Shown: piece by piece, positions 25,282 to 51,242 of the stretch
Layout: each line of letters opens with the position of its first letter
Position numbering within the stretch: the first letter of the stretch is position 1
IMG/VR virus record: IMGVR_UViG_3300032247_001693
Location: 1-64,000 of that record
Strand: one strand, 5' to 3'
DNA from: a virus
Taxonomy: Duplodnaviria; Caudoviricetes
DNA: 64,000 nucleotides
The notes under the pieces: generated by a model
Seen by the model: the letters and a program-made list of their open reading frames with translations, nothing else
Told to the model about the DNA's origin: nothing
The model's database searches: none
Made by a program: the position numbers and the translations under genes

Positions 25282-25283
25282 AG

Positions 25284-28507: not shown

Positions 28508-28523
28508 TGGCATGATATTTGCT
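28508..28523 (+). promoter_or_regulatory. Sigma54 (-24/-12) consensus site
   Basis: TGGCAT-GATAT-TTGCT matches TGGCAC-N5-TTGCW. Confidence 0.6.
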
Positions 28524-30677: not shown

Positions 30678-30749
30678 TATCATTATACTCTTTTTATCGA
30701 CCATGTCAACCCCACAGCTAGAGAAAATCTAAAAATTTTGAGAATGCTC

Positions 30750-30827
30750 TAAGTGGTTATTCTGTAAGGACTTACGGCGATCCGGGGCGCCCGCCCTATC
30801 CCTAAGTTCTTTAAGGATAAGGACTTA
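30750..30827. repeat. Double-palindrome element, copy 8
   Basis: Same geometry. Confidence 0.9.
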
Positions 30828-31908
30828 CGACTAGTAGTCTTCGGCCTCAATAAACTCATCACATTCATAATTAGAGTTGGATAGAACTTCCGGGCGATAT
30901 TTGCTCAACACTTTATCAGCACATTTCCCACAAACTCTAGCAAGGGGAATTCCACGGGCATCAGTTTCCCACCAACTACTCTCACCAGACCCACAATTAC
31001 AAACTTTCATGATTTTTCCTTAGTTGTTGCTAGGATCAATAGAACACAAACCAGAAACCACATTATCTCTTCGAGCAATTTCCAAAGCACTACAGAAAAA
31101 TTCAAAAAAAATCTCCAACTCATTACGAACATCTGGTTCACTACCGGTAGATGCAGCATTGAACAAATTAACTGCAAATTCGGCCACTCTATCACGAGCA
31201 GCAGTCCGCTCTTCATGCGTCAACATAACTACTTCCTATTTGTCAAAGTTTTACGACGGCGAATCTCATCAGCACAATAGCAAATCTCATCTGCATAATA
31301 CCCATGATTGGGGGTATCGGGCCAAACGCTCAAAACCTCACCACAATCCTTGATCACAAAATTCAACTCATCTATAGTCATCTTCTTAACCTTACGACTA
31401 TACATAGCATGATCAAAGATTTTTGTCATCGACATTTTCCACTTTCTCCACATACAAGTTTGAACCGAACAATTTTTGAGCTTTAAATAAAGCCCCGGCT
31501 TCGTGCAAATGCTCCACATATCCCACAAACTTACAATTCTGCACAACTCTCCAGATATATTTACTCATCGTCTTCCTCTTCATCATCGCCACCAAACATC
31601 TTGTCCCAATATTCCTTATCGAATCCGGTAATACAAACCTCCCTATCGTCCACAGACAAATAAGGAAAGCACTCTTGAATCAGACCTCCATTCATGTAGC
31701 GGTTGAGATCAACCAGATTGACTGTCAAATTGACAGCTTTTCCGCCAAGACTCTTACCAGACAAAACCACAGAACCACCATCTTCGCTAAGAGTCCGACT
31801 GAAATTGTTCAAAGCGTACATCATAATTCTTCTCCTTGTGTTCCTCGTATTCTACACAACTCTTATCGTCCTGTCAAGAGGCTAATCTTAAGAAAAAATA
31901 GATTTCTG

Positions 31909-31986
31909 TAAACTGTTGACAAATAAGGACTTACATCAAAACGGGGCGCCCGTCCTCGTCGCAAGTCCTTATGCGACAAGGGTTTG
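31909..31986. repeat. Double-palindrome element, copy 9
   Basis: Same geometry. Confidence 0.9.
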
Positions 31987-31995
31987 GGTCAAATA

Positions 31996-32376
31996 CTAGA
32001 GCGTGTCACTCTGAATGGTCTTATCGTTGATCTTAAAATCAAATCCATGTCCATAATACCCATTGTGAATATTATACAGATGAATAAACTTTTCATTTTC
32101 TCCATTTACGATACGGAATACTACCATTCCACCACCATCAAAGAGATATTCATCATCAGAAACAATTTGCTTGAAATAGGAGGTATCAAATACCCAATCA
32201 GACAGATCTACTTCATCAATGTTTCTATCCATAGGCTTTTCACACACAGTATCAGAGATAAACCAATTAGCTTCTTCACAGCAGTCCTGAGACATATCAT
32301 ATCCAAGATAAACATTATTTTCATCAACAAAATTAACCTTTTCCACCCAAGGCTCTTCCGCATTGAAAATCTTCAT
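31996..32376 (-). CDS. Hypothetical phage protein (DCCE...NGYYGH motif)
   Basis: Single-gene cassette between elements 9 and 10, with its own promoter. Confidence 0.7.
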   Translation of the reverse strand: MKIFNAEEPWVEKVNFVDENNVYLGYDMSQDCCEEANWFISDTVCEKPMDRNIDEVDLSDWVFDTSYFKQIVSDDEYLFDGGGMVVFRIVNGENEKFIHLYNIHNGYYGHGFDFKINDKTIQSDTL

Positions 32377-32463
32377 TTTCTACTCCTCTTTGATTTTTAT
32401 CCGTTCTGTTCTATCATTATACTCTAATATCGACCAATGTCAAGCTAATTTTTATAGAAATCC

Positions 32464-32541
32464 TAAATCCTCATAGAATAAGGACTTACATCAAAACGGG
32501 GCGGCCCGGCCCACCCTAAGTCCTTATTAGATAAAGACTTA
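32464..32541. repeat. Double-palindrome element, copy 10
   Basis: Same geometry. Confidence 0.9.
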
Positions 32542-32570
32542 GAGCAGGTGGGTAGCTTGTTGATGAGAAA

Positions 32571-32975
32571 TTAAAGAATCAAGCTAGCCAATCGGGGAAC
32601 CTTGAAGAGTTGCTTCCCGAACAGGGGCCGACGAAGATTTCGAGTTCGTTCGGCATAAAAATTGCGAACCGTACCGTCCATGCTCTGGCAGGTCACCAGA
32701 TGCGAAGTACGGATAAAAGAAGGGTCATCACTACGATACCGACTTCGACGATTCAGCTTCTCAATCTGAGCATCGGTCAGCTTGCGAACATCCAGCACCT
32801 TTGCCAGATACCGCTCTGCCGTCCCCTCAAGAGGCTGTTCGTAAGTGAAATGAACAATCTCACCAACCTTGGAGCTAGACAGACTGCCATGCAGACCACC
32901 GTAGACACCAACATACAACACGCAACCAGCAACAATCAGAGACGCAGCAATAGCACAACCAATAGCAAACATCAT
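32571..32975 (-). CDS. Hypothetical protein with N-terminal hydrophobic anchor
   Basis: Single-gene cassette between elements 10 and 11. Confidence 0.65.
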   Translation of the reverse strand: MMFAIGCAIAASLIVAGCVLYVGVYGGLHGSLSSSKVGEIVHFTYEQPLEGTAERYLAKVLDVRKLTDAQIEKLNRRSRYRSDDPSFIRTSHLVTCQSMDGTVRNFYAERTRNLRRPLFGKQLFKVPRLASLIL

Positions 32976-33076
32976 TTCAAAAACCTCATTAGTGTTAGGA
33001 TCACTTGAACTTCGATCATTATACAGTGTTATCGGTAAAAGTCAAGCGGTAGCTTTAAGAATTTTTTGAGTTGACA

Positions 33077-33154
33077 CAACTCGTTGAAAAATAAAGACTT
33101 ATGTCGAGCCGGGGCAGCCTGCCTTTCTCTAAGTCTTTTAGAGATAAGGGCTTA
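33077..33154. repeat. Double-palindrome element, copy 11
   Basis: Same geometry. Confidence 0.9.
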
Positions 33155-33163
33155 TGGCTTTCT

Positions 33164-33409
33164 TTATTCGAATTCGACGAAGATCACCTGATTATAGCCA
33201 CGGGGCTTGATGGTGAAGCTGTCGCCATAATTTTCCGTATCGGCCTTAACGCCGGTCATTCCCGCCATAGCCTTAGCTTGACGAACAACGCTGTGCTGAG
33301 ATTCAGCATTCTTCGGAAGAAACTCAAACCGATTCGCCCAACCATAGTTAGCTTCGCCACCGAAAAGATCGGTATGGGTCACAACGCACTTGATAGCCTT
33401 CATTTTCAT
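33164..33409 (-). CDS. Conserved hypothetical phage protein (TDLFGGEANYGW motif)
   Basis: Single-gene cassette between elements 11 and 12. Confidence 0.7.
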   Translation of the reverse strand: MKMKAIKCVVTHTDLFGGEANYGWANRFEFLPKNAESQHSVVRQAKAMAGMTGVKADTENYGDSFTIKPRGYNQVIFVEFE

Positions 33410-33513
33410 TTTCCTGTTAAAGTTAGTTCTAATCGTTCTCATCATCATGTTGGCATTCTACTACACTAGTATCGACAAGTCAATAGCCTCTTCTTGAAAA
33501 AACCTTTTTGATG

Positions 33514-33591
33514 TAACTCGTTGAAAAATAAGGACTTACGATAAACCGGGGCGCTCGGCCTTGATCTAAGTCCTTTAGATTCAAGACCTTA
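33514..33591. repeat. Double-palindrome element, copy 12
   Basis: Same geometry; the stop of ORF 33594-33995 lies 3 nt from the element edge. Confidence 0.9.
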
Positions 33592-33593
33592 CG

Positions 33594-33995
33594 TCAAATG
33601 TTGGCGTAGACCCGTTTTCCCCTAGTGACCAGTTTATCAAAAATTTTGCAGTCGATATCTTCGTCGCTATTTTCGTAGTGCCAATACTTTTGCACCTTGG
33701 GGTCATATACTACCATTTTCATCTCTTTAATATCAGTAGCTCCACAGCTAGCAATATCGCTCAAGATAAAACCATAGCATTTAATCCACCCACAAACATC
33801 TCGTTTTTGAGACTCGAAAACTTTAGCAGCTTTCTTGGGGCGATTAATAAGCTGGCATTCGCTCATCAAAATCTCATAATGTTCGGGATTCCAATATGAT
33901 ACGGTCATAAGGTTTCCATTATGGTAACTCTTCATCTGCCAGTGCTTATAATGTTCACCTGCACCCAGATGGAATCTTACTTCGTAATGTCTCAT
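33594..33995 (-). CDS. Hypothetical phage protein (FHLGAGEHYKHWQ motif)
   Basis: 133-aa ORF ending at element 12. Confidence 0.7.
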   Translation of the reverse strand: MRHYEVRFHLGAGEHYKHWQMKSYHNGNLMTVSYWNPEHYEILMSECQLINRPKKAAKVFESQKRDVCGWIKCYGFILSDIASCGATDIKEMKMVVYDPKVQKYWHYENSDEDIDCKIFDKLVTRGKRVYANI

Positions 33996-34372
33996 TTTTG
34001 TACCACAATAAGGTTAGGTAGATAGCCCATCAACATCTCAACAAACTGAGCTTTTCCAAATAATTTATATGCTTCTCTTTGTGTCATCTGAACTGTTCGT
34101 CCAGTATCAACACTAGTAATTTCATAAACTTTCATTTCTCACCCTTTCACTCTATTCTATACCACCAATATTAGCTTGTCAAGGGGGCTACAGTTCTTGC
34201 TGACTATACCACCTAGCCGAAATCCGGAGGATTAGCAGAAACGTTCCAATCGGTAGTATAACCCGAACCCATACGAGTTGATCAGCCTCGTCGTTCACTA
34301 TGGCTGTCTGTCAAGTATACCTCTATTATCGACTTTGTCAAGTGGTCAGCTTGAGAAAATTTCATACTGACG

Positions 34373-34450
34373 TAAAGTGTTGAGAAATAAGGACTTAGGG
34401 CGAAAGCGGGCGCCCCCGTTCGCCCTAAGTGCTTACACACAAAGGGTTTA
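34373..34450. repeat. Double-palindrome element, copy 13
   Basis: Same geometry. Confidence 0.9.
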
Positions 34451-34460
34451 CGGTTAGCTC

Positions 34461-36250
34461 TTAAAGATAGTGAGCATCACACCCAATATCCCGAAGTTGA
34501 GTAGCCACACGATGCCCAATATGATAGTCAGCTATTTCCATAGAGTTAGGCTTTCCATCTTCATATCCACTATATCGATAGTCGCCACAAGATCCACCAC
34601 GAACAACATCACAGAACTTTTTAGCTTCATATAAGCTAGTTCCGGCTGTGTTACGAATAATCCTAATAGCATTAATAAATTGATCTGGAGGAATACTTTT
34701 CAAAATTAATGTTGCACACCTAGAAAAACTATCGATGGGGGGAATAGAGCATTCTGCTGGCGGTACACTAACAATAGCATCCTCCAAAGCTTTCAACAGC
34801 TTATTATACAGATCATCACAACTAGTGCTTTCAATAATAGCAACGATCTCTTTTACCGTCAAACTAACATTAACCATTTTTTCTATCTCCTAATTTTGAA
34901 TCATTCACAATAGTTTGAAAATCTTTTGCAAGAGCAGTCCAATCGTCCCGTTCGATCTCTGGGTGGTCAAAATAAAAATCGTCAAGAATTTCTGCTGCTG
35001 TTTTTGGAAACGCCCAATCAAACAACGACATAAAACCCTTTAGTAGCCAACTCACTCCCCACCTCCTAGCCTTGCAAGCATGTTGCGGAGAACGGCCACG
35101 CCCCAGCCCATTTCGTGAAGCTGTTCAATCACAGCTTCAATCGCATCCAGCTCCTCCGGTCGCAGCCGTAGCCGCTCCACCTCTGCCCTCAGAAATTCAA
35201 TTTCTTTAATAGTCTCTTGAATCAACTCATACTCAGTTTTGTCTCCATAGAGCTCCCAAACATTATTACATGTCCAAATTGATTTCAGCATGTCAACAAG
35301 ATTATTAACGTCAGTCATTCTTTCTCTTCTTTGTGTATGGGCGGGATTTTTGTTATTCTCGCTATGGCTAACCCGCATTCCCACAGATCAGTTGGGAGCT
35401 ACCCAACCACTTTGTGTCACCAATATAGCATACGTTCTTGGTTTGTCAAGCGTACAACACCGAATGAATCGGATTTTCGTTGGTGACTTTTTATTGCAAG
35501 GGACGGGTGGGTTCGTTTCAACAATGCGTTAGCATCTCCACTGACCACCTACTCTACTACCGGCTTAGTAGCTAGCAAGCATCGTGAGCCACTCAAGTGG
35601 CCTAGCAATCCCTTTTGTATTGTCAAGATAAACGGTTCACCTCATCGGAATGCGCCTGCGCCTCCTGCTCCCAATATTCAGCGGCTCGCCGCAGCCGCTC
35701 CACCTCTAACCTGAGAGATTTAATCTCTTTGATAGCCTTTTGAATCAACCTATACTCAATATGATTACCACCACATTCATAACATGAAGATAATCCAATG
35801 AAATCAAGTCTATCTACGATATCTTTAACGTCATTCATTTTTATTCCAAGCCTCCAAATTAGTTTCTTTCTCCAGAATCTTTGACAAACTATTCATCCAC
35901 TCATTTGCAGACTTCATAGCATCAGGTCCCATAGTAGTCATGATCCAATGCCATTCGCCTTCGCAATTAGCCAACACAGACCAACAATCAGCACCGTTTT
36001 TTTCTATCTTCAGCAACATTATTTTCCTTTTCCTTTTCTAACCAAACATCTCGTACTCTTCATCAGTCAACGCCACCTCATCTGGACGATAACATCCGTT
36101 ACCATGCAAATCACGATTAGTAGGACGCTTTTCCCACTCATCCATAAATCGCTTGTTTTCAATACGACGCTTTTCTTCTTCATTCTTCTCTATCATTTGT
36201 CTTCCTCTTTCTTGTTCTATCATTCTACACCTATCATCGGTAGTTGTCAA
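34461..36250 (-). other. Cassette of small hypothetical ORFs, including paralogs 35052-35330 and 35623-35838
   Basis: Both paralogs share M.DV..(I/L)VD.L...LIQ..IKEI..LR.EVERLR. Confidence 0.6.
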
Positions 36251-36280
36251 GCCCCCTCTTTAAGAAAAATGCGTTTGATG

Positions 36281-36358
36281 TAAGTTGTTGAGAAATAAAC
36301 ACTTAGGACAAATCGGCCCGCCCGCTTTCGCCCTAAGTCCTTTATGGACAAGGGTTTG
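36281..36358. repeat. Double-palindrome element, copy 14
   Basis: Same geometry. Confidence 0.88.
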
Positions 36359-36367
36359 CGGTTAGTC

Positions 36368-36664
36368 TCAAAAATCCCCATCATCTAGGTGCCAATCATC
36401 GGGTTGGTCGGCATCACACCCATAGCCCCCAAAATCGTCATCCCCGTAGCTCCCGTAGTCCTCATCAGTGCCAAAACCGGCACTTGATAGGGCGGATTCG
36501 TGGTCGCCGTCCATAGAATCATCATAATCTTCATCCTCATCATCCCAATCACAATCATCATCTTCCCAATCGTCATCTTCATCCCAATCATCATCATCAT
36601 CATCAAAATAGCCCTCAACTTCGTTTTCGTAGTCGTAGTCGTGAAGGGGGTCAGGATGGCTCAT
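36368..36664 (-). CDS. Very acidic low-complexity protein (D/E/W/Y-rich)
   Basis: DDDWDEDDDWEDDDCDW repeats and a SMDGDHESALSSAGFGTDEDY motif; possibly a DNA-mimic or decoy (inference). Confidence 0.65.
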   Translation of the reverse strand: MSHPDPLHDYDYENEVEGYFDDDDDDWDEDDDWEDDDCDWDDEDEDYDDSMDGDHESALSSAGFGTDEDYGSYGDDDFGGYGCDADQPDDWHLDDGDF

Positions 36665-37008
36665 CTTAAAAACTCCAAAGGGTTAGGACTGATGGATGTA
36701 GTATACCGGGACAAAAACAATTGTCAAGAGGTCTGATACTCGTATGGTACAAATTCTTCAACGATCCCCACAGCTTCGGCCCAATCCCAAAAATTGATTT
36801 CAAGATTAGGATCGTCGATAGGCTCGACCATCATCTCAAGGATAGAATCATCACCCAACTGATTCAGCACCAGATTCATTTCATCCAAATTGAACATAGT
36901 AGAATTCCTTGATAGGGTTATCGGCCTGATGAAATCATTCTACTAAGTATATCGACAAGGTCAAGAGCATCCCCTTAAATATTTTTCTTGCAATATCTTA
37001 AGGTAGCG

Positions 37009-37086
37009 TAAAGTCTTGAAGAATAAGGACTTACGTCAAAAGCGGGCGCCCGCCCTAGCTGCAAGTCTTTTGCAGATAAGGACTTA
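37009..37086. repeat. Double-palindrome element, copy 15
   Basis: Same geometry; the stop of ORF 37090-37461 lies 4 nt away. Confidence 0.9.
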
Positions 37087-37089
37087 CGT

Positions 37090-37461
37090 TCAGTCTTCAA
37101 TTTCGCGGAAAATTGAGATTTCCAACCCAGATGCCATAATGGCAGCATACTGTTCGACCATAGCTGCCACTCTGTCAGATGATCCCGGCTTGCCAACTGG
37201 CAGCAACATTAGGTCATCAGCGTTTTTCAGTCTCTTATTGACTTTTTCTTTCTTGCTGGTAGAAATTTTCTTCAAGGCTTTTTGATTGAACTTCAAAACT
37301 TTTTCCGTAACCAACACCCTCTTTCGGGTGGCTAGTTCACAAGAGTAGGTTTCATCCTCGATTACCAGATGGTCTGCAATCTCAACCATATCGGGAATCG
37401 CTAGACCCAGGAAACAATTGCGGGCCTGCCGCTTTGCTCTCTCAACAATCTCAAATTTCAT
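37090..37461 (-). CDS. Hypothetical protein, paralog of 39005-39322
   Basis: MKFEIVERAKRQARNCFLGLAIP versus MKFAIVENAKRQARNCFLGIAIP. Confidence 0.75.
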   Translation of the reverse strand: MKFEIVERAKRQARNCFLGLAIPDMVEIADHLVIEDETYSCELATRKRVLVTEKVLKFNQKALKKISTSKKEKVNKRLKNADDLMLLPVGKPGSSDRVAAMVEQYAAIMASGLEISIFREIED

Positions 37462-37804
37462 CGTAAAATCCCTTGTGAAGTTAGAACTTGTCTCGATATT
37501 CTACAGGAAGATTCAAGCCTTGTCAACCTTACAATACCGCAAGGTTTACGCATCTTCCCACTTATGTTCGGACTGATTATAAATCTTCACCTGCTCAACG
37601 CCGGTCTTCACCACCACCGCTTTGCGAACATCCATCCAATCCTTACCCGAAAACGGCCCAAGATACTTGCCATCGACGGTGAACACGCAGAAATTCTTGA
37701 CTTTCATATTTTTCTCACTGGGTTTGGTTTTGGTACTCATGTCATCATTATACACTCTTATCGGCATTTGTCAATAGCGATCTTGAAGAATTTTGATATT
37801 GATC

Positions 37805-37882
37805 TAAGTTGTTGAAAAATAAGGACTTACGACGATCCGGGGCGCCCGCCCTTGCCGCAAGTCCTTTGAGGCTAAGGGTTTA
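37805..37882. repeat. Double-palindrome element, copy 16
   Basis: Same geometry. Confidence 0.9.
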
Positions 37883-38847
37883 GGAGCGATGTAATTTTGG
37901 GTCGTTTTTTGAGCCACGATAGAAACGATCACGGGAAGCTTCCGCCATCGGGCAGGAAAATCCCATTTTGTTTCTCCACCGGAGCAAACTTTTGATAGCT
38001 GCCCCAGTTTCACCATTAACTACATCTTCTGTCACAACAATAGTACCGTCTTCAACTTTGACCAGAGCAACTAGCGTCTTACCCTGTTGTGGACGCACCA
38101 CAATTGTCAAGCCATTAGAGGCCCGATCTATTTCGCATTGTCGAAGTTTCATAGGCCACCATTAAATTGCCTTATTGATTTTGTGATAAAGAGCCTTCAA
38201 TCTCTCTAATTCATCCTCATAAGAAACATTTGTTTCTTTGGTACTATACTCATACGTCTTAAGAATCTCAACCTTTTTCATCCGCGACATAACAGACATA
38301 CTCAGGTCAAACAATTCAGAAGGACTAAACATTACCAACTCCTTTTTAGGTTACTTACTACTATATCGACATTTTACCCTGTAGATTCCAGTTTGTCAAG
38401 AAAAATCTTTCCTTGCAAAACCTACAGATTAACCCATCTTCAACAGACCCCCTATTCTCGCTGACTATACCACATAGCCGCAAATCCGGAGGATTAGGAA
38501 AAACAATGAAGACCCCCCCTTCAGACCCAAGCCACCGCCCAAAACCCCCAAACCTCCCAGACTACCCAACTACCACAACCACCCCAACTACCCCAGACTT
38601 CCTAGAATTCATATCCTGTATAGCCTTCACAGTATACGGGAGCATAGTTCACCTAATTGATAAGGATTGCAAAGATAATTCCGCAAATCAGACAAATCCC
38701 CAAAATCGCCCTATCTTTCCTACTCATCCTATTTCCCCTATCTTCTATTAGTTTTCCAATCTGCTTCTATTACCATATATCGTCCATTTTACCATCCAAA
38801 CTTGAACTTGTCAAACCTTAAAATTTCGTAAGGTAGATCATTCGTCG

Positions 38848-38925
38848 TAAGTGCTTGAAGAATAAAGACTTACGTCAAGGTGGGGCGGCCCGTTTTGCTC
38901 TAAGTCCTTATTTTTCAACACTTTA
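38848..38925. repeat. Double-palindrome element, copy 17
   Basis: Same geometry. Confidence 0.9.
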
Positions 38926-39004
38926 TGTCAAGTGCTAAAACTAGTGGACAAAAGACCACCACCCCCACCAGAGAGGTAGTGTACATGCTTATCCCCCGTT
39001 GGGG

Positions 39005-39322: not shown

Positions 39323-40182
39323 TTTCACATCCTCAAGGTTTCTCATTCTCATACCCCTATTATACAGGGGAGTTTTGGAATTGCAAGCACAAAGTTTCCT
39401 TAAATTTTCGTAAGGTAGTCGAAAGCTCTGGAAACCGCAGTATCCAAAAACCCCCGCACAATCTCCCCACCAGCCTTGAAAACTTCGTGTACGGTGTAGG
39501 TGAGGAATGCACAAAAGGTCAGTATACAGGTGATCATTACGATATCGTAGAGCATGTTTTCCTCTTAAGCTACTTTGATGAAAATTTCGACTACGCCAGA
39601 CTTCGTTGACAGTGTGACCAGAAATTTCCGACCGCTACCATCTTCAATCCTCATACCATTTACCAAACCAATGAATGGCATATCTACTGAATCATACAGC
39701 AGAATTTCATACCGACCACGCATAGCCTCTACAATATCGCTCAAAAGATAGACCTTGCGAATCGAGCGGGGTACTACAGTGTTCATTTTTCTTTTTCCTT
39801 TTTCTCTACTGGTTATATCGTCATTATACAGGGGAAACTTTAGTTGTCAAGTCCTATTCACCATCATATCCGACATACCAAATCTCACCTTTTTCATCAG
39901 CCATTTTCTTGAATCCCTTTTTTGCCATGTGACGATCTTGAATGAAATTATCTACAATTCCAAAAGCCTGAGCCATCAGCCAGAAGCCTACCGTCATGGA
40001 AAGATAGATGGTGGCAATCAGAGCGATCCAGCAGAGAGCAATTATGAGGCTTGTCATTTTCTTATTCCTGTTTTTTCTTTTCCCTACGTCTTATATCGTC
40101 ATTATACAGGCTTTTCTTTAGCCGTCAAGCATATTTTCCAGAATTTTCGGAATATAATTTCATGCCAAACATAATTTTTCTT

Positions 40183-40217
40183 TGGCATGTTATTTGCTCT
40201 TTGCAAAAGTTGTGCCA
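40183..40217. promoter_or_regulatory. Head-to-head sigma54 consensus pair
   Basis: TGGCATGTTATTTGCT (+, 40183-40198), 3-nt gap, TGGCACAACTTTTGCA (-, 40202-40217). Confidence 0.7.
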
Positions 40218-40242
40218 AACTCAAAAAAATATGGATTCGACG

Positions 40243-40320
40243 TAAGTGCTTGAAGAATAAGGACTTAGAGATAGCCGGGGCGGGCCGATTCGACGTAAGT
40301 CCTTTGGTGGTAAGGGTTTA
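40243..40320. repeat. Double-palindrome element, copy 18
   Basis: Same geometry. Confidence 0.9.
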
Positions 40321-40421
40321 CGTCAAGTGGCCTTTTCGCATCCCTCGTCCGTGGGGGTAGTTCCACCATAAGGCAGATCTTCCCCCCGGCTGGGGAGTGT
40401 ACGTTTGGTTACCCCCCAAAA

Positions 40422-40652
40422 TCAGTAGTAGATAAAATCGTTGACGATATTTCCTGCAATGTCAACCCCGATGAATTCATCCTCATCATCGCATGGGAAA
40501 AAATTCCTGATTTCCATTCCACTACCAAAAGCTTCAACCAAAAGAGCCCCACCAATACGGGCGATTCCCACCAGAGTATCGGGAGAGGAAGAATCTTCCC
40601 CATAGAGCAATTCATTCAGTTCGGCACGGGTGTTGATGGTGATCATTTTCAT
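40422..40652 (-). CDS. Hypothetical protein, paralog of 42287-42514
   Basis: MITINTRAELNELLYG...DTLVGIARIGG versus MITINNRTELNEILYG...DTLVGVARFGG; both end (N/D)D(F/C)IYY. Confidence 0.75.
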   Translation of the reverse strand: MKMITINTRAELNELLYGEDSSSPDTLVGIARIGGALLVEAFGSGMEIRNFFPCDDEDEFIGVDIAGNIVNDFIYY

Positions 40653-41040
40653 TTTTCCTTTTTCTACTGGTCTTTTCTCTTGTGTTTCAATTATACAGAG
40701 TATATCGTCCCCTGTCAAGCCCCCACCTTAGAAAAATATCGGACAAATTCCAGCCGAATATCTTCACGATTGAAAGGGAATTTTCCGTTGTAGGTATCGT
40801 TCCACATCTTCTCTACCATTGGCATAGCATCCATCCAAGTTTCGGCTGTTACGAATCCGAAACTCCACTCGCCACGGGAGGTTGCGACCAAAATCTCAAA
40901 TTGAATTTCATTTTTCATTTTCATTTCCTTCTCTTGTGTTTTCCCTGTCATGCTTTCATTATACAGAGTATATCGGCAGTGTCAAGAAAATTCTGGAATA
41001 TTTTTGAAATATAATTTCGTGCCAAATAAAATTTTTCTTG

Positions 41041-41075
41041 TGGTATGATATTTGCTAGTAGCGAATGCTGTGCCA
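41041..41075. promoter_or_regulatory. Head-to-head sigma54-like pair
   Basis: TGGTATGATATTTGCT (+), 3-nt gap, TGGCACAGCATTCGCT (-). Confidence 0.6.
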
Positions 41076-41135
41076 AAGTTTCCTTACAATTTCGTAAGGT
41101 TGGCGCAACCCCATCAGTTTAGCTAATACTAGACG

Positions 41136-41213
41136 TAAGCTCTTGAGAAATAAGGACTTAGGTCGAGCCGGGGCGCCCCGTTTTGACGCAAGTCCTTTGG
41201 TGGCAAGACTTTA
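41136..41213. repeat. Double-palindrome element, copy 19
   Basis: Same geometry. Confidence 0.9.
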
Positions 41214-41647
41214 CGTCGAATGGGTTTTGAGTAGTGAACAACCATACAGACCACCCCCCAAATAGGGTAGTGTACAGATGATCACCCCGCCTTAGATATA
41301 CTTCTTGACTCCCCACTTGTAAGCAGTGATACGCTTACCCTCAATTCTCACCTTCCCAGTCTTCTTACTAGTGATCCTCAATTCTGCCTTGCTACCATCA
41401 GCACAATCAGCACAACGGTAGTAGACATCAAATCGATCATCCTTGCTCCAATTGATCACGATCATGCTGACATCCTCATTACGCAGGATGAAATTTGTGG
41501 TAGTACGATTGATGCTGCTATTCATGGGATCGAATCCTAGTAGGTTAATGGGTCTCTCACCATTCTACATTCATTATCGTCTATCGTCAAGCCTCCCCAA
41601 TAAAAATTCTTCAAATATAATCTTGTGCCAAAAAACCTTTTTCTATT

Positions 41648-41682
41648 TGGTATACCATTTGCTCTATGCAAGTATCGTGCCA
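41648..41682. promoter_or_regulatory. Head-to-head sigma54 consensus pair
   Basis: TGGTATACCATTTGCT (+), 3-nt gap, TGGCACGATACTTGCA (-). Confidence 0.7.
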
Positions 41683-41707
41683 AACCGTGAAAAATTTTCA
41701 TTTGACG

Positions 41708-41785
41708 TAAGTGTTTGATACATAAGGACTTAGAGCTATCCGGGGCCGCCCGATTTGACGTAAGTCCTTTATTCATAAGGGTTTA
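41708..41785. repeat. Double-palindrome element, copy 20
   Basis: tttgacg-TAAGTGTTT-gatacat-AAGGACTTA-N28-TAAGTCCTT-tattcat-AAGGGTTTA-cgtcaa. Confidence 0.9.
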
Positions 41786-42286
41786 CGTCAAGCCTGTGTT
41801 CACTACTGTACATACCAACACATACGCCCCCCATTAGGGGAGTGTACGCTTGGCTACCCTGCCATGTGGGGGTTGTGTCAGCCCCCCTCATCTTCGGGCG
41901 ACCAGTCTACATCGTCAGGATCAACACCATCAAAAGCGTCAAGATCATAAACGTCCCCATCCTCAAAATTCTCAATATCCTCATCACCATCCTCAAACAC
42001 CACATCACAATGTTCCCAGCAGCAGGGACACAACTCAAGATCGGCCACATCTATCACCACCTCTACACCACAGCATTCGCTCTTCATTGTCTTATTCCTT
42101 TTCCTGAGCCTGCAATTCGATAACCAATTTCCAGCACACATCAAACGTCACATGACGGGCCACTACCTTGCCACCGTACCACACTTCATATCGGTCGCCC
42201 GTGCGATTTGAAGTATTCCAGTAGATCATTTTTTTGCTCATTGAATTATTGTAGGGAAATTTTCTAGCCCTGTCAACCCCCCAAAA

Positions 42287-42514
42287 TCAGTAGTAGATGC
42301 AATCGTCAACCACGATTCCGTTCGCGTCAACTTCAATCCATTCACCTTCATCTCCCATTGGGAAGAAACCAGTGATCTGGCGGAAATCAGTTTCCAAAGC
42401 TTCGGAGAGCAATTCTCCACCAAAACGGGCGACACCAACCAAAGTGTCATAATGTTCGGTAGTCCCACCATAAAGGATTTCGTTCAGTTCGGTGCGATTG
42501 TTGATGGTGATCAT
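42287..42514 (-). CDS. Hypothetical protein, paralog of 40422-40652
   Basis: Direct alignment. Confidence 0.75.
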   Translation of the reverse strand: MITINNRTELNEILYGGTTEHYDTLVGVARFGGELLSEALETDFRQITGFFPMGDEGEWIEVDANGIVVDDCIYY

Positions 42515-42650
42515 TTTCGTTGTCCTTTTTTCTATCGTTCTCTTCTCTTCTTCTACCATTATACAGACTCTATCGACGCTTGCAAGCAAAATCTTGAAAA
42601 TTTTCAAAATATAATTTCGTACCAAATAAAAAAATTTTTTTCTATCCGAA

Positions 42651-42719
42651 TGGCACACAATTTGCTCTATGCAAAAGTTATGCCAAACAAAATTATTCCG
42701 TTTTGGCACAAAATTTGCT
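42651..42719. promoter_or_regulatory. Sigma54 consensus cluster (pair plus a third site)
   Basis: TGGCACACAATTTGCT (+, 42651), 3-nt gap, TGGCATAACTTTTGCA (-, 42670-42685), and TGGCACAAAATTTGCT (+, 42704-42719). Confidence 0.72.
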
Positions 42720-42738
42720 AGCGCGGATCGATTTGACG

Positions 42739-42816
42739 TAAAGTGTTGATATATAAGGACTTAGAACGAGCGGGGGCGTCCGGATTTGACGTAAGTCCTT
42801 TAGATATAAGGGTTTA
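42739..42816. repeat. Double-palindrome element, copy 21 (last)
   Basis: Same geometry. Confidence 0.9.
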
Positions 42817-43016
42817 GGTCAAGTCCCCACCTAAAGGGGGGTTTTTTCATTCTAGATAAGCTGGGCAATTTAGGCAGGAAAAACGCCGGGTGGTCTACAC
42901 ATAACAAGCCCATCCCCTATAAATTAGCCAGTTTAATAGCCACTTTCTTTAAATAAAAAAAGGCAAGGCTCCTCCTAAGAACCCTGCCTCTTTTAAAACA
43001 GTACAATCTATTAACT

Positions 43017-43351: not shown

Positions 43352-44461
43352 TTAATCTCCAATTCCTGCATCATAGACCTGACCATCGGCCGGGTTAACT
43401 AGATAAGGAACAATATTAGCACTAATGCCCACACTAACAGACTGAACACTACCATCTAACATTCCCATTAAACAAACCCCCGGATGTTCAGTATAGGGCT
43501 CATCATTACTACCAACATTATTAGTTGTCATAGCATATGAAGTCGCCCCAATAGTCTGAGGATTCTTAGTCTGATTATTAATCATCTGCAAAGTTCTAGA
43601 AGAAGCTGTTTCTTCAGCAGGATGACCACTCCAACCAGACGCATTATCTCCATCCGCCCAACGAGCAGGACAAGTTCCCGCTGCTGATCCACCCTGAGCG
43701 GCCGGATGAGTAGTTAGTGATCCATCGGTCCAATTAGAGTCCGCTGTTACTTGAACCATCTTACCACCCCTTAGTTTATACCAATCAGTATTTCCCGTTA
43801 GAGTAGGACTTCTTTTCCCACCATAATAAGAAACCCGGCTAGTATCTTCTGTAAAAACCGCCGTTTTACTTAAACCGTCCCTAATATTAGCTACTCTCTT
43901 AATAATATAACCACTTAAAGCCCCCTCAGCATAACTATTAGCAACAGATGCACCCGCCGCTAATGTTGCAGCATTTCGTTGACCATTAACTGGATTAATA
44001 TCAGTATAAGCAAATGGCATATAATCACTAATACCAAAAGCGGCCGAACCACTTCCCCCAACATCAGTATTGGCTAAACTACTAGCGCACCTAAACAATG
44101 GAATATTATTCATTGCTAAAGTAGCATTATTAGTTGACCAATAAGGTTGATCATTATTCCATGCTGATGCTATATTATTATTTTCCGTAAAAGGCAATAT
44201 AGCCTGAAACAGAGATTGTAAACAAAGAGCCTCCCTTCCACTAGCGAAATTCTTAAACTCCCCGCTATTAGGATAGTATCTATTAGCACTCTCAAAATTA
44301 GCAATACCAAGCGAAATTTGCTTAATATTATTTCCACAACTCATTCTCTGAGCAGCACCCCGCGCCGCTTGAACTGCTGGTAGTAACAAACCTACCAAAG
44401 TCCCGATAATAGCAATAACCACCAACAACTCTACTAGAGTAAAACCTTTTCTTTGCTGCAT
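43352..44461 (-). CDS. DUF1559 prepilin-type N-terminal cleavage/methylation protein with H-X9-DG motif (Planctomycetes-type)
   Basis: [46 protein letters not shown]-terminus; [10 protein letters not shown]-like segment; C-terminal [12 protein letters not shown] (H-X9-DG). Confidence 0.92.
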
Positions 44462-44502: not shown

Positions 44503-44760
44503 TTATAGACCACTTTCCGACACAACCGACGAACTAACATTATCACTACCAACCTCACTAGGAGCAAGAACTTTCTTAACTGGTCGCCCCCTTGGTTTAC
44601 TTAACAACAACTTTCTTCGTTGTCTTCGTACCATAGCGGTACTAATCTTTTGACCACTAATTTGGCTTAATTTAACGGCCAATTCCTCATCAGGAATCGA
44701 AACATGATTATTTCTAATATATTCTATCTCATTTTGAGACCATTTTTTGTAAACTGACAT
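44503..44760 (-). CDS. Small HTH-like DNA-binding protein
   Basis: KKWSQNEIEYIRNN...DEELA.KLS...STAMVRRQRRKL; Myb/HTH-like pattern with a basic PRGRP tail. Confidence 0.55.
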   Translation of the reverse strand: MSVYKKWSQNEIEYIRNNHVSIPDEELAVKLSQISGQKISTAMVRRQRRKLLLSKPRGRPVKKVLAPSEVGSDNVSSSVVSESGL

Positions 44761-44984
44761 TTAATTCTCCTTTTGGTGTTATAAATATTGACAAGTTATG
44801 TCCCAACTCATATTATATTATTAGTTGGCAACTTTTTCGCAAGGAGAGAAAATGTTAAAAGGTACAAATTTCAACATAGTTGGTTCAGTTTTGAGCGTTA
44901 AAGCCTCTGGTTCGGCCGATTACGACCAAAGGATAAAAGAAGAACTAAATTTACCAATAGGAAAAAGCATAGCGCAATTATTAG

Positions 44985-45653
44985 ATGAAGAAAAAACCCA
45001 AAACAGAAAATGATAATATATCTTTGCCTAATGGGGTAACCCAAGAACAATTTTTAGAAGTATTAGATAATATAAGCAAAAGATTAGGACACAAGTTCAA
45101 ATTTGCTTATCACGACTTTTCCGACATGAAACAACAAGCGGCCATTTTTGCCCTAGAGGGTTTACAAAATTATGATAATAGTCGCCCCCTAGAAAACTTC
45201 TTATGGACCCACGTTAGAAATCGCCTCTTTAATTACAAACGTAACAATTATCAAAGGCCCGACAAACCCTGCTTAACTTGTCCCCTCTTTGATAAAAACT
45301 ATAAACTTTCTAAAAACCAGTGTTCAAAATATATTGATAAAGAAGAATGCGAACTATATATTTCATGGTTTAAAAGAAATGAAAATAAAAAGAATATTAT
45401 TCAGCCCTCATCTATGGAAGCCGATACCCACACCAACAAAAAGAAAGATGTCGTTTCTTTACTCCAAGACAAAGAGATTATAGATTTTCTTGATGGTAAT
45501 ATAAAATCGGAATTTAGAGAGTCTTATTTAAAATTAAAGCACGGACTCAAAATCCCCAAACAACAGTTATTAAAACTTAAAGCCCACATCTTATTAATAA
45601 TGGAGGAGTCCCAATGGAACCAGTTAAAATTCCACGAAAACGAGGACAACTAA
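44985..45653 (+). CDS. Phage sigma70/ECF-like sigma factor (region 2)
   Basis: DMKQQAAIFALEGLQNYDNSRPLENFLWTHVRNRLFNYKR matches the sigma region-2 pattern; it is the first large gene after the strand switch. Confidence 0.7.
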   Translation: MKKKPKTENDNISLPNGVTQEQFLEVLDNISKRLGHKFKFAYHDFSDMKQQAAIFALEGLQNYDNSRPLENFLWTHVRNRLFNYKRNNYQRPDKPCLTCPLFDKNYKLSKNQCSKYIDKEECELYISWFKRNENKKNIIQPSSMEADTHTNKKKDVVSLLQDKEIIDFLDGNIKSEFRESYLKLKHGLKIPKQQLLKLKAHILLIMEESQWNQLKFHENEDN

Positions 45654-47694: not shown

Positions 47695-48157
47695 ATTTAC
47701 AATAATAGTTGATACTAGAGAGCAACAACCGTGGACTTTTGATCATTACGCGGTAGCAAAAAGGAAATTAGATACCGGAGACTATAGCATAGAGGGCTTA
47801 GAATCAGTATTAGCTATAGAACGAAAGAAAAGTGTTAGCGAAATAGCAAATAATATCACGGAATCTAGATTTCAAGATGTTGTAGAAAGATTGAGTCAAC
47901 TTAAACATTCATTTATTTTATTTGAATTTGATCTAGAAGATGTTCTAGTTTATCCCATAGGTTCTAGCTTGCCTAAAAAAATGTGGAATAAGATTAGAGT
48001 TACTCCAGCATTTATAATGAAACATATACTAGAACTACAATTAAACCACAATATTAAAATCGTATTTTGTGGTTCTGCTAGTAATGCTGAAAAAATGGCA
48101 GAATATATTATGAAAAAAATCTATTATATAGAAAAAATTAAAGATACCAATGGATGA
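47678..48157 (+). CDS. ERCC4-domain nuclease
   Basis: IIVDTREQ, LDTGDYSI and IERKKS..E motifs. Confidence 0.85.
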   Translation: MLNQNEFTIIVDTREQQPWTFDHYAVAKRKLDTGDYSIEGLESVLAIERKKSVSEIANNITESRFQDVVERLSQLKHSFILFEFDLEDVLVYPIGSSLPKKMWNKIRVTPAFIMKHILELQLNHNIKIVFCGSASNAEKMAEYIMKKIYYIEKIKDTNG

Positions 48158-51100
48158 TCATAAAAAAATATACGAAGACGCATGGTTAGGATTAGGAGAT
48201 ATATCTCTAATTACTTTTGATCATAATCTTATGATTAATAGGTCTAGGGAAGATATAGAAAATCCAGACCTTCATCTAATGAGACTGTTACGAGATCCAA
48301 AATATTTAGGAACAACATGTAAATTATTATTCAATATTGAATTACATCCTATACAAGTAGCCATCTTACAAGAGTTTTGGGTAAGAGCATTTCCGATGTT
48401 TATTGCGAGTAGAGGATTTGGTAAAGCTTTATCTCCAGATACTCCAGTACTATCTGAACATGGATGGAAGAACATAAAAGATATATCTGCTGGAGAAAGA
48501 GTCTATGGTTCAGATGGACAACTGACTAATGTTACTGGAACTACAATAGAGCAGAAAAATTTAAAATTTTATAAAATTACACTTAGAGACAATAGGACCA
48601 TAAGATGTTGTGAAGATCATTTATGGAAAATTTGGGATAAAAATCAAAATAGAAATAATAAACAAAATAACTATACAACTATTTCTACTAAAGAAATGTT
48701 TAAAAATTATTACTGGGATCGTACAGGAGAAAAAAGTAATGGCAAAGAATTTAGATATGCTTTACCTATTAATAAACCTATATCTAATTGGCCTAAAATA
48801 ACACATATAATACATCCATACATAGTAGGAGTACTTTTGGGAGATGGTTGTTTAACTCAAAAAACAATTACAATAACTTCAAGAGACCAAGAAATTATAG
48901 ATAGAGTTAATAGTTTACTTCCTAATGGATATAAAGCAATAAAACATAAATCTTCATTATGCTCTTTTGGTATTAAAAGAACTGACAAGAAATTACCAGC
49001 ATTTTATAAACTATGTGAACAGATAGGTATATGGAAATATAATTCTAGCACTAAATTCATACCAAAAGATTATCAGTTTTGTTCTATTGAACAAAGACTA
49101 GACTTATTAAAAGGGTTAATGGATACGGATGGATATTCTGACAGGACAATAAAAGAATACTATACAATTTCTCAGCAATTATCAGACGATTTTCTAAATG
49201 TTGCTAGGTCTCTAGGATTTCATTGCAAGCATACCATTAAAGAATCTTGGATAAAAGATACTCAATATTCTGATTGTCATAGGATATCTATTTATACTAA
49301 CGAACCCATTTTCTATTTATCTCGAAAATTAGAATATTTAAACTATAGCGTTTCTAAACAAGGTCAATCTAAATACGATAAAGTATTTATTATTGATATT
49401 CAAGAAGACGGTTATGATAATGGATATTGTATATCTGTAGACAATAAAGATAAAACATATATTATAAAAGACTATATTGTAACCCATAATTCTTTTATCA
49501 TGGCGCTATATTGTATTTTAAGATGTACATTTTTCCCAGGAACAAAAATAGTAGTAGTGGGCGCTGCTTTTAGACAGAGTAAAATCATATTTGAATATAT
49601 GGAAACTATATGGAGAAATAGTCCCATATTAAGAAGTATATTTAATAGCAATAATGATGGTCCACGAAGAGACGTTGATCGTTGTACCATGAGATTAGGA
49701 GATAGCTGGACAATAGCTATTCCTATGGGTGACGGTTCCAAGATCAGAGGATTACGTGCTCATATAATTATTGCAGATGAATTTGCGTCTATATCTCCTG
49801 ATATTTACGAGACAGTAGTATCAGGATTTGCTGCCGTATCTGCTAATCCAATACAAAATGTAAAAGAATTTGCAAAAAAGAAAGCTATGACAGAAGCGGG
49901 ATTGTGGAATCCAGAATTAGAAGCTCTTAATACAAAAATGGGAAATCAAGCCATAATATCAGGAACAGCAGATTATGACTTTAAACATTTTGCAGGCTAT
50001 TGGAAAAGATATAAGGGAATTATACAAAGTAGGGGAGATAAACAAAAACTAGAAGAATTATTTAAGGGAGAAGTTCCAGATAATTTTAATTGGAAAGACT
50101 ATAGTATTATTAGAATACCCTATGAATTAATTCCAAAAGGATTTATGGATGATAAGCAGGTATCGAGAGCTAAAGCTACAATTCATACTGGCATATATAA
50201 TATGGAATATGGGGCATGTTTTATGAGTGATAGTGAAGGATTCTTTAGAAGAAGATTGATTGAGAGTTGTGTAGTTTCTGAAAATAATCCAATAATCATA
50301 GATAATAAACAAATACTATTTGAGTCAGCAGTTGTTGGAAATCCAAACTCTCAATATATTTATGGAATCGACCCCGCTAGTGAACAAGATAATTTTAGCA
50401 TAATAATATTAGAAGTTTTTCCTACTCATGCTAGAGTGGTATATTGTTGGACTACTAATAGAAATAATTTTAAAGAAAGACTAAAAACAGGACTAGTAAA
50501 AGAACATGATTTTTATGGATTCTGTGCTAGAAAAATTAGAAACTTAATGAAAGTATTTCCTTGTATTAGAATTGGTCTAGATGCTCAGGGTGGAGGAGTA
50601 GCTATTGAAGAGGCGCTACACGATCCCTCTAAGCTAGAAGAAGGAGAACATTTAATTTGGCCCGCAATAGACCCTGATAAATCTAAAGACACTGATGATC
50701 AAACAGGATTACATATTTTAGAATTAGTTCAGTTTGCCAAAGCAGAATGGACAGCTCAGGCTAATCACGGATTAAGAAAAGACTTAGAAGATAAAGTTTT
50801 ATTATTTCCAAGATTTGATAATTTAACATTAGGATTAGCTTTAGATAGTGAAGGACAAGATATATTAAACTCTGATATGAAAAATTTATATGATAATCCT
50901 AGTGAATGTATTTTAGAAATAGAAGAACTAAAGAATGAATTAACAACTATTGTTATGACTCAAACTAGTACTGGTCCTAATGCTAGAGATCGTTGGGATA
51001 CTCCAGAAATTAAAATGCCCAATGGTAAAAAGGGTAGATTAAGAAAAGATCGTTATAGTTCATTAATTATAGCAAATATGTTAGCTAGACAATTAAATAG

Positions 51101-51242
51101 AATTTTACAGCCAGTAATCTATGAAGTTGTTGGGGGAAATGCCAGAAACATGCTTAAAAATCAAGGAGCAATGTACAAGGGGCCAGATTGGTTCACCAGT
51201 GGTGGGGCTAATGATGATTCCTATGTCGGAGTTTATAGATAA
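48150..51242 (+). CDS. terL: Terminase large subunit, intein-interrupted
   Basis: Walker A ASRGFGK|S is split by an intein; RGLRAHIIIADEF Walker B; GIDPA...D RNase H-like nuclease motif; KDRYS C-terminal motif. Confidence 0.9.
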   Translation: MDDHKKIYEDAWLGLGDISLITFDHNLMINRSREDIENPDLHLMRLLRDPKYLGTTCKLLFNIELHPIQVAILQEFWVRAFPMFIASRGFGKALSPDTPVLSEHGWKNIKDISAGERVYGSDGQLTNVTGTTIEQKNLKFYKITLRDNRTIRCCEDHLWKIWDKNQNRNNKQNNYTTISTKEMFKNYYWDRTGEKSNGKEFRYALPINKPISNWPKITHIIHPYIVGVLLGDGCLTQKTITITSRDQEIIDRVNSLLPNGYKAIKHKSSLCSFGIKRTDKKLPAFYKLCEQIGIWKYNSSTKFIPKDYQFCSIEQRLDLLKGLMDTDGYSDRTIKEYYTISQQLSDDFLNVARSLGFHCKHTIKESWIKDTQYSDCHRISIYTNEPIFYLSRKLEYLNYSVSKQGQSKYDKVFIIDIQEDGYDNGYCISVDNKDKTYIIKDYIVTHNSFIMALYCILRCTFFPGTKIVVVGAAFRQSKIIFEYMETIWRNSPILRSIFNSNNDGPRRDVDRCTMRLGDSWTIAIPMGDGSKIRGLRAHIIIADEFASISPDIYETVVSGFAAVSANPIQNVKEFAKKKAMTEAGLWNPELEALNTKMGNQAIISGTADYDFKHFAGYWKRYKGIIQSRGDKQKLEELFKGEVPDNFNWKDYSIIRIPYELIPKGFMDDKQVSRAKATIHTGIYNMEYGACFMSDSEGFFRRRLIESCVVSENNPIIIDNKQILFESAVVGNPNSQYIYGIDPASEQDNFSIIILEVFPTHARVVYCWTTNRNNFKERLKTGLVKEHDFYGFCARKIRNLMKVFPCIRIGLDAQGGGVAIEEALHDPSKLEEGEHLIWPAIDPDKSKDTDDQTGLHILELVQFAKAEWTAQANHGLRKDLEDKVLLFPRFDNLTLGLALDSEGQDILNSDMKNLYDNPSECILEIEELKNELTTIVMTQTSTGPNARDRWDTPEIKMPNGKKGRLRKDRYSSLIIANMLARQLNRILQPVIYEVVGGNARNMLKNQGAMYKGPDWFTSGGANDDSYVGVYR
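48426..49490 (+). mobile_element. Intein (355 aa) with LAGLIDADG endonuclease, Ala1 class 3-type
   Basis: Begins ALSPDTPV directly after GFGK and ends YIVTHN before Ser+1. LAGLIDADG motifs YIVGVLLGDGC and LKGLMDTDG. Block B HLW, block F GYCISVD, block G VTHN. Confidence 0.88.

Follow-up and report, generated by a model that had tools for sequence, protein, structure and literature searches.

Opposed sigma-54-like promoter cores in the early-cassette boundary modules of a tailed phage, possible docking sites for host polymerase

Related control systems

Sigma-54 serves the only bacterial transcription route known to require an ATP-driven activator. Its promoters (TGGCAC-N5-TTGCW, as in glnAp2 and pspA) are the closest described relatives of four paired elements in the stretch of DNA analysed here, a window of 64,000 nucleotides from a tailed-phage record of 88 kb (IMGVR_UViG_3300032247_001693, positions 1 to 64,000). 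The -24 GG and -12 GC cores, their spacing and the flank preferences are identical, and a dyad element, R, lies at enhancer-like distances from the left-facing halves. Unlike bacterial sigma-54 promoters, however, the cores are opposed and, since they stand face to face, each predicted start falls inside the partner. The phage setting also differs, with no activator gene, no recognisable known enhancer and a consensus sigma-70 promoter alongside.

A second comparison is offered by the PeSL (promoter-early stem-loop) elements, which Arbiol et al. are said to have described in 2010 as regulatory cassettes of T4-type phages. Shared with these are repeated intergenic modules, an early sigma-70 promoter, small uncharacterised early genes and junctions at sites of cassette shuffling. 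By contrast, the promoter-adjacent repeat here is no stem-loop but a four-arm site of protein type that lacks covariation, the modules carry pairs of sigma-54 cores, and this phage may not be T4-type.

In the sRNA gene glmY, sigma-54 and sigma-70 promoters overlap in the same direction and share a start. As in that gene, and in repression through sigma-factor competition (PMC4591121), both sigma elements occupy one control region, where one holoenzyme can affect the other, but the sigma-54 cores in the phage are opposed, and the sigma-70 start is ~100 nt downstream of them. The nearest phage precedent is Pseudomonas phage YuA, a lytic phage that uses host sigma-70 plus a sigma-54-type promoter, and in which a sigma-54-like promoter region matched an assay by promoter trap (Ceyssens et al., 2008, cited in PMC10914365). 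PMC10914365 describes nothing on pairing for the YuA site, whereas the phage considered here has, as judged from sequence, opposed pairs in a repeated boundary module. A literature search found no paper describing paired sigma-54 sites in a phage, in line with the first-pass annotation of this DNA, which knew of none.

Face-to-face cores

All four units proposed by the first-pass annotation are present (40183-40217, 41041-41075, 41648-41682 and 42651-42685) and match TGGYAY-N5-TTGCT-N3-WGCRA-N5-RTGCCA with 0 mismatches; the full 35-bp pattern has 0 matches in 100 dinucleotide-preserving shuffles. The cassette 1 pair combines a right-facing half, TGGCAT-N5-TTGCT (40183-40198, plus strand; predicted start ~40209), with a left-facing half, TGGCAC-N5-TTGCA (40217-40202, minus strand; predicted start ~40191). 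The plus- and minus-strand halves are TGGTAT-N5-TTGCT and TGGCAC-N5-TCGCT in cassette 2 (41041..41075), TGGTAT-N5-TTGCT and TGGCACG-N4-TTGCA in cassette 3 (41648..41682), and TGGCAC-N5-TTGCT and TGGCAT-N5-TTGCA in cassette 4 (42651..42685). It had been argued that such sites could not both fire, which is fair from the geometry because the predicted starts fall ~19 nt inside each other's sites; firing alternately in either direction is still allowed.

Two single sites, both on the plus strand, had also been noted and are confirmed. One has the perfect core TGGCAC-N5-TTGCT (42704..42719), and its predicted start (~42730) is the first base of an R element; the other, TGGCAT-N5-TTGCT (28508..28523), has a minus-strand sigma-70 promoter (28458-28485) on one side and an R element on the other. 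Both are among the 8 sites in the window that match TGGCAC-N5-TTGCW with at most one mismatch, compared with 1.2 expected, a count of 8 being reached by no shuffle. Across the whole 88-kb record, good sites are confined to 28.5 kb and 40.2-42.7 kb. The -24 GG and -12 GC, with 10 bases between them, are found in all eight pair halves and both single sites, and outside the core the window's own sites agree with the consensus preferences (Y and then R after TGGCA; W after TTGC). A further sigma-54-like match at 44826, upstream of a sigma-like gene, was discarded, as comparison with relatives identifies it as a variant of TTGACA within a conserved leader.

A hairpin or cruciform formed by the 35-mer is ruled out. 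Complementarity between the N4 spacers does not exceed the chance level (14-30%), which means that the pair is not a hairpin and that each half stands as a bipartite site of its own.

Boundary modules

Read on the gene strand, each module runs from a gene end through a terminator hairpin, R, the sigma-54 pair, an AT-rich box and a sigma-70 promoter to a small early gene. The placement of the pair between a sigma-70-type promoter and a double-palindrome element, as first described, is upheld, with the addition that the consensus promoters (TTGACR-N16/17-TATAAT) are all on the minus strand and drive minus-strand genes. That of cassette 1 is TTGACG-N16-TATAAT (40101..40128, minus strand), with equivalents on the same strand at 40958-40985, 41562-41590 and 42558-42585. 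Measured from the predicted sigma-70 starts, the centres of the palindromes are ~106-117 nt upstream, and the left-facing halves reach the cassette genes through ~135-nt leaders in which the sigma-70 promoter is embedded. Downstream of the right-facing halves there are only R and a terminator. In cassette 4 an intrinsic-terminator-like hairpin with a T run (42821..42850, plus strand) directly follows R. Another terminator-like hairpin, CYCCCC-N4-GGGGGG (41827..41842, minus strand), closes the upstream minus-strand unit and has equivalents near 40382-40397 and 41255-41270.

The cassette genes are small (49-88 aa), on the minus strand, and located at ~39854-40057, 40422-40652, 40715-40951, 41292-41525, 41878-42144, 42092-42241 and 42287-42514. 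No Pfam or PHROG family match was found for any of those between 39854 and 42520; those at 40422-40652 and 42287-42514 are paralogues. Pairs are present in only four or five of ~20 modules. Comparison with a near relative (L028) reveals gains and losses of whole cassettes and a chimeric module, the junctions lying inside the R/palindrome modules, where homology stops at 40327 and restarts with the flank of cassette 3.

The R element

R is a 93-bp four-arm dyad, with four half-sites (consensus TTGACGTAAGTCCTT) in alternating orientation, a (9-7-9)-28-(9-7-9) geometry and a GC-rich core. The cassette 1 copy occupies 40235..40327, further copies are at 41128-41220, 41700-41792, 42731-42823 and 28571-28662, and the stretch from 21.5 to 38.9 kb holds ~14 more. 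An sRNA or a terminator stem was rejected as the main function: paired cells and covariation do not exceed shuffles under either folding model, Rfam gives no match at either the gathering or the E-value threshold, and separate terminators exist. Arms 3 and 4 show an excess of G-U over A-C on the plus strand (111 vs. 50). As far as its sequence indicates, R behaves as a protein-binding DNA site. A similarity to integron attC sites was also considered, given the four boxes and the position at cassette ends; the R arms are without the structure-only conservation of attC, and no integrase was seen in the 88-kb record.

A candidate for a protein that binds R or the pairs is encoded at 44503..44760 (minus strand); it has 85 aa and is conserved across 10 related loci. 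Its structure model has a three-helix, HTH-like domain and a basic, AT-hook-like PRGRP tail. The structure model of another protein family (37090/39005) is weak.

Pairs in other phages

The pair type is found in more than 119 viral contigs, spanning 28-66% GC, compared with 1 contig for the reversed control, and has 0 occurrences in 401 bacterial genomes, which identifies it as a phage device. Over 118 unique pairs taken from other contigs, the free positions follow the sigma-54 consensus TGGCAYR-N4-TTGCW: TGGCA is followed by Y in 98% and next by R in 95%, and TTGC by W in 95%. The likeness to sigma-54 sites thus holds more strongly than could be known when it was first pointed out from this window. 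The 3-bp gap, by contrast, had been called invariant, and is fixed only within the clade of this phage. Among the matches listed, the unique sites have gaps of 3 bp (11), 4 (46), 5 (14), 6 (10), 7 (23) and 8 (4), a variation that argues against one rigid dimeric reader and fits two abutting promoters better.

Within each genome the sites cluster within ~3 kb. Another clade has alternating arrays of sites that take up the divergent control region separating operons, and other phages have arrays with a 43-51-bp period. Non-palindromic single sites with sigma-54 features adjoin pairs in other viral contigs; near an R element, 24 single sites face into R and 7 face away, and most single sites face away from genes. 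A gene-orientation census around the pairs, with coarse ORF calling, found them mostly intergenic, with all flank orientations and no decisive bias. No protein is common to all pair loci, and no family occurs in more than 24 of ~119 loci. For cultured relatives, no DNA or portal-protein match was found in the phage collection.

Activator genes and host

A search for a phage activator or RpoN-like gene, as suggested at the outset, found neither a sigma-54 nor an activator ATPase gene in this record and three complete relatives. None of them has a PF00158 or PF14532 protein, the weak PF00158 hits in the relatives being RuvB. A host activator may nevertheless act from solution. The host is probably a member of the Planctomycetota, because the phage carries a DUF1559/N-methyl pilin-like gene (43352-44461); the Planctomycete host assumed at the outset fits this gene. 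The predicted sigma-54 regulon of this phylum includes chaperones (PMC12316311). A scan of the genome collection did not find R in Planctomycete genomes.

Possible functions

The most likely reading, which still falls somewhat short of an even chance, is that host sigma-54 (RpoN) polymerase docks at the pairs in either direction. Several lines of evidence lead to it: the exact -24 GG/-12 GC geometry in all ten halves and single sites, the spread of the pairs over phages of very different GC content relative to the reversed control, and the retention of the consensus at the free positions. To these are added the chance-level complementarity of the spacers, the variation of the gap among phages (3-8 bp), the single sites that adjoin pairs and tend to face R, the alternating arrays in a divergent control region, and the combination of a probable host phylum with a predicted sigma-54 regulon and the YuA precedent. 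What is seen directly is the sequence match, its distribution over phages, the DNA-level character of the pairs, the layout of the modules and the missing sigma-54 and activator genes; that sigma-54 binds and fires, where transcripts would start and which activator would act are inferred.

Each pair would then be two promoter cores that accept one holoenzyme in either orientation and never two at once. The left-facing half would be aimed at the small early gene of its cassette, ~97 nt upstream of the sigma-70 start of that gene, with the two R dyads as far away as enhancers typically are (~-60 to -150). Its right-facing partner would point into R and, in cassette 4, then into the terminator. 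The pair may provide a second input for four of ~20 early cassettes, those closest to the early/late divergence. This input would need a host activator ATPase and so depend on host state; if the activator is lacking, the polymerase would stay silent, parked beside a strong sigma-70 promoter.

Several observations stand against docking. The phage and its three complete relatives have no activator gene, R is absent from the scanned Planctomycete genomes, and a consensus sigma-70 promoter already serves every cassette gene. Moreover, the single sites mostly face away from genes, the 43-51-bp arrays of other phages look like cooperative protein-binding arrays, and this clade keeps one constant gap, which a dimeric reader would need.

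A trap or insulator, in which stable closed complexes form and never fire, is unlikely, even though it readily accommodates the missing activator gene and a palindrome that needs no direction. As a trap, the replicating phage genome would titrate a scarce host sigma factor and dampen sigma-54-dependent stress or defence regulons; as an insulator, the parked polymerase would shield or repress neighbouring promoters and separate cassettes. Near-consensus cores clustered within each genome are consistent with such a role, as is the absence of the pair type from the bacterial genomes, and sigma-54 holoenzyme occupies many inactive sites and represses overlapping promoters (PMC4591121). However, there are only ~10 half-sites per genome, a pure decoy does not need single sites biased toward R, E. 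coli showed no roadblock effect (PMC4591121), and the units of this phage are already separated by terminator hairpins.

It is equally doubtful that the pair serves as operator for a regulator, dimeric or tetrameric and from phage or host, that gates the adjacent sigma-70 promoters, the site merely resembling a sigma-54 core or having evolved to overlap one. The dyad symmetry, the four T(G/T)GCW boxes placed about one helical turn apart on one DNA face and the gap constant in this clade would suit such a protein, as would the periodic arrays in other phages, the protein-site behaviour of neighbouring R and the small HTH-like protein with an AT-hook-like tail encoded nearby. Nevertheless, a phage regulator would need to hold to one 16-bp bipartite specificity, down to the degenerate Y, R and W preferences of sigma-54, in phages that range from 28 to 66% GC, no protein family extends beyond 24 of ~119 loci, complete single half-units are common, and the half-site spacing differs among clades (3-8 bp).

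That the repeats are mainly PeSL-like homology patches for shuffling early-gene cassettes, with a secondary sigma-54 look, is improbable: whole-cassette differences from L028 with junctions inside the modules agree with it, but recombination needs homology only, which leaves unexplained both the GG/GC cores and consensus flanks kept in unrelated phages and the restriction of pairs to a minority of modules.

Returning to docking by host sigma-54 polymerase, a broader proposal is possible, and held more loosely than docking itself. The pairs may be a dedicated phage-specific device, present in many unrelated lineages, that captures the host's enhancer-dependent polymerase either way round, and may serve to read host state through the host activator (two-way firing) or to sequester sigma-54; in this clade it may be coupled to the four-arm protein-binding element, forming mobile early-cassette boundary modules. 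Sigma-54 transcription has hardly been studied in phages, YuA being the only case that the literature search found. If true, phages would exploit, sense or disarm a host pathway for stress, motility and envelope responses, which in Planctomycetota and Bacteroidota also includes chaperone genes, and would do so with opposed cores that bacteria themselves do not use. In uncultured phages the pairs would also serve to mark the host phylum and the boundaries of early regions, and they would offer a simple 35-bp reagent for how one holoenzyme picks a direction on a symmetric site.

Lone -24-type boxes

Isolated -24 half-sites (TGCCA or TACCA) had been listed near 40163, 41020, 41626 and 42620, and they are indeed present, each exactly 10 nt past the start of a conserved TATAAT. 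Pairs, single sites and these half-sites at a fixed TATAAT offset are all beyond chance expectation. The conserved box is TATAAT-N4-TGCCAAA (40153..40169; also 41010-41026, 41616-41632 and 42610-42626) and is present in another locus (L078) as well. Read on the minus strand, it consists of a -24-type TGGCA followed by TATAT in place of TTGC.

Face-to-Face Sigma-54-Type Sites

Four 35-bp units, in each of which two sigma-54 promoter cores face each other, lie at 40183, 41041, 41648 and 42651 and define cassettes 1-4. All four match the pattern described in the first-pass annotation without mismatch, and none appears in shuffled sequence; the single sites that it placed at 42704 and 28508 are likewise real, and its four lone TGCCA/TACCA boxes are all present, with a conserved TATAAT beginning 10 nt before each of them. 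On the minus strand this TATAAT-TGCCAAA box reads as a -24-type TGGCA, followed by TATAT where TTGC is expected. Good cores are confined, within the whole record, to 28.5 kb and 40.2-42.7 kb. The pair feature is real and non-random.

The motif TGGCA-N6-TTGC-N5-GCAA-N6-TGCCA is present in more than 119 viral contigs among the matches listed (28-66% GC), against one viral contig for the reversed-pattern control. The unconstrained positions of 118 unique sites follow the known consensus: 55% have T immediately before TGGCA, 98% have Y directly behind it and 95% have R next, and TTGC is followed by W in 95%. Between opposed halves, the four spacer columns show complementarity at no more than the chance level (14-30% of sites), so that a hairpin is rejected and the palindrome is best read as two independent bipartite sites. 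When the gap between TTGC and GCAA was left free, face-to-face pairs with 3 to 8 intervening bases were recovered (11, 46, 14, 10, 23 and 4 unique sites, respectively, among the matches listed), and larger gaps were few; the gap is constant within the clade of this phage. Many contigs carry complete single cores with the same features beside the pairs, and the divergent control region adjoining the packaging operon of an unrelated clade is filled by an alternating array of five or six sites. Neither 401 bacterial genomes sampled from one phylum nor five other genomes yielded a pair with a gap of 3-8, and against this set the feature is phage-specific.

In the literature searched, no account of such paired sites in a phage was found, and the only phage precedent found for sigma-54 use is Pseudomonas phage YuA (PMC10914365). 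What is new here is the arrangement of putative sigma-54 promoter cores face to face within a composite boundary module, whose function is predicted only.

Architecture of the Module

The minus-strand genes are preceded by consensus sigma-70 promoters (TTGACR-N16/17-(TG)TATAAT). In all four cassettes the order on the gene strand is the end of the upstream gene, a small hairpin (CYCCCC-N4-GGGGGG), the 93-bp dyad element R, the sigma-54 pair, the TATAAT-TGCCAAA box within AT-rich DNA, the sigma-70 promoter and a small gene (49-88 aa) that matches no Pfam or PHROG family. Spacing is alike throughout: the centre of each palindrome precedes the inferred sigma-70 start by ~106-117 nt, and the predicted start of each left-facing half precedes it by ~97 nt. 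Relative to the left-facing halves, the two R dyads lie at ~-62/-115 (cassettes 1 and 3) or ~-95/-150 (cassettes 2 and 4). The right-facing halves are directed into R. Cassette 4 has an extra perfect single site at 42704 (+), whose predicted start is the first base of R, and a plus-strand terminator-like hairpin (42821-42850) directly after R. Many minus-strand sigma-70 promoters also contain a conserved GCCGATA box in their spacers (e.g., 28458-28485, 37747-37774 and 40958-40985), which is similar to the sigma-28 (FliA) -10 element.

R is built from four half-sites with the consensus TTGACGTAAGTCCTT, which alternate in orientation around a GC-rich core with fixed geometry. About 19 copies occur in the record between 21.5 and 42.8 kb, and more than 130 distinct copies in related viral contigs. 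By hand tally of the promoter map, R lies upstream of ~17 of 25 minus-strand sigma-70 promoters. Around 14 copies (21476-38950) are without sigma-54 sites, and most of these start 20-35 nt upstream of the -35 box of such a promoter, again by hand tally. Near R, 24 strict single sites are directed into the element and 7 away from it, and the distance from TTGCW to the first R arm falls into classes of 9, 14, 21, 26, 34, 39 and 44 nt.

When 56 oriented copies were aligned and folded as two local hairpins or as one long hairpin, neither model showed pairing or covariation above column shuffles (470-487 of 500 shuffles scored at least as high as observed), and the four middle positions of each arm are free to change, with no compensating substitutions. 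R therefore behaves as a set of putative protein half-sites, and a stem of RNA or DNA is rejected as its main reading. R has no Rfam match. In arms 3 and 4, on the plus strand, G-U combinations outnumber A-C (111 vs. 50). A run of TTAGGGA-like heptamer repeats was seen in an unrelated viral contig (L022:2030-2100).

Comparison with a near relative, L028, reveals whole cassettes gained or lost and one chimeric module: the match to cassette 1 stops at the final base of R (40327), and the alignment carries on in the sequence flanking cassette 3. The modules thus also act as recombination junctions, as do the promoter-early stem-loop (PeSL) cassettes of T4-type phages. Two cassette genes of ~76 aa are paralogous together with their promoters (40411-40714 and 42276-42582; 71-77% DNA identity), which indicates that whole cassettes were duplicated within the region.

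Candidate Readers and Use of the Sites

The 16-bp bipartite specificity is kept across very different phages, degenerate preferences included, while differing half-to-half gaps are tolerated, so that the best-fitting reader is a conserved host protein, of which sigma-54 would be the obvious one. Binding by sigma-54 or its holoenzyme is accordingly predicted as probable. Sigma-54 DNA-binding, core-binding and activator domains were found neither in the record nor in three complete relatives (terminal repeats, 201-244 kb) and a 91%-complete one; the only weak matches in the relatives, to the activator domain, are RuvB. These genomes contain just 2-6 strict sites each, within a few kb in three of them.

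As to the use of such binding, we tentatively favour paired, mutually exclusive promoters adding an activator-dependent input, because the left-facing halves are laid out as a normal enhancer-dependent promoter before a gene, single-site orientation is non-random, and arrays stand in divergent control regions of other phages. As the first-pass annotation had reasoned, the two polymerases could not be productive together, since the inferred starts (e.g., 40209 and 40191) fall inside the partner site. A serious rival, itself rather unlikely, is a sigma-54 trap or insulator. In its favour, the holoenzyme is known to occupy many silent sites and to repress overlapping promoters; against it, roadblocking was not observed in E. 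coli (PMC4591121). An operator for a regulator is an equally serious and equally improbable rival. In this clade, the interval separating the cassettes from the late genes encodes an 85-aa protein whose model, a three-helix HTH-like domain plus a PRGRP tail, gives weak fold matches, so that the protein is a candidate binder only; no protein family is common to more than 24 of ~119 pair-bearing loci.

Gene Layout and Host

The source IMG/VR record is linear (88 kb, ~60% complete, 35% GC), and the window comprises its first 64 kb. Small minus-strand genes, 11 tRNA genes and a Pistol ribozyme extend to ~44.8 kb, followed on the plus strand by genes for GDP-mannose dehydratase, an ERCC4 nuclease, an intein-bearing large terminase and a portal, and by an ORF with a weak sigma-70 region 2 match. 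A minus-strand pilin-like gene (43352-44461), with DUF1559 and N-terminal-methylation domains, is absent from the closest relative, L028, and is therefore read as an accessory gene acquired from the host, and one that hints at the identity of that host. Known members of this family are mostly from Planctomycetota, so the Planctomycete host assumed in the initial reading is probably correct. A 2025 study predicts sigma-54 regulons, chaperone genes included, in Planctomycetota (PMC12316311).

The self-cleaving Pistol ribozyme (21839-21906, minus strand; Rfam RF02679, 54.8 bits against a gathering score of 34.5) adjoins a cluster of tRNA genes, all on the minus strand (21575-21802 and 24311-25838). 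A conserved short ORF (44825-45013, +) follows a GGAG site and a plus-strand sigma-70 promoter and overlaps, in a different reading frame, the beginning of the ORF with the weak sigma-70 region 2 match (44985-45653, +); it could be a small leader gene, or reflect a frameshift or an incorrectly assigned start. Hint and LAGLIDADG homing-endonuclease matches in the 1030-aa large terminase ORF (48150-51242, +) suggest the intein.
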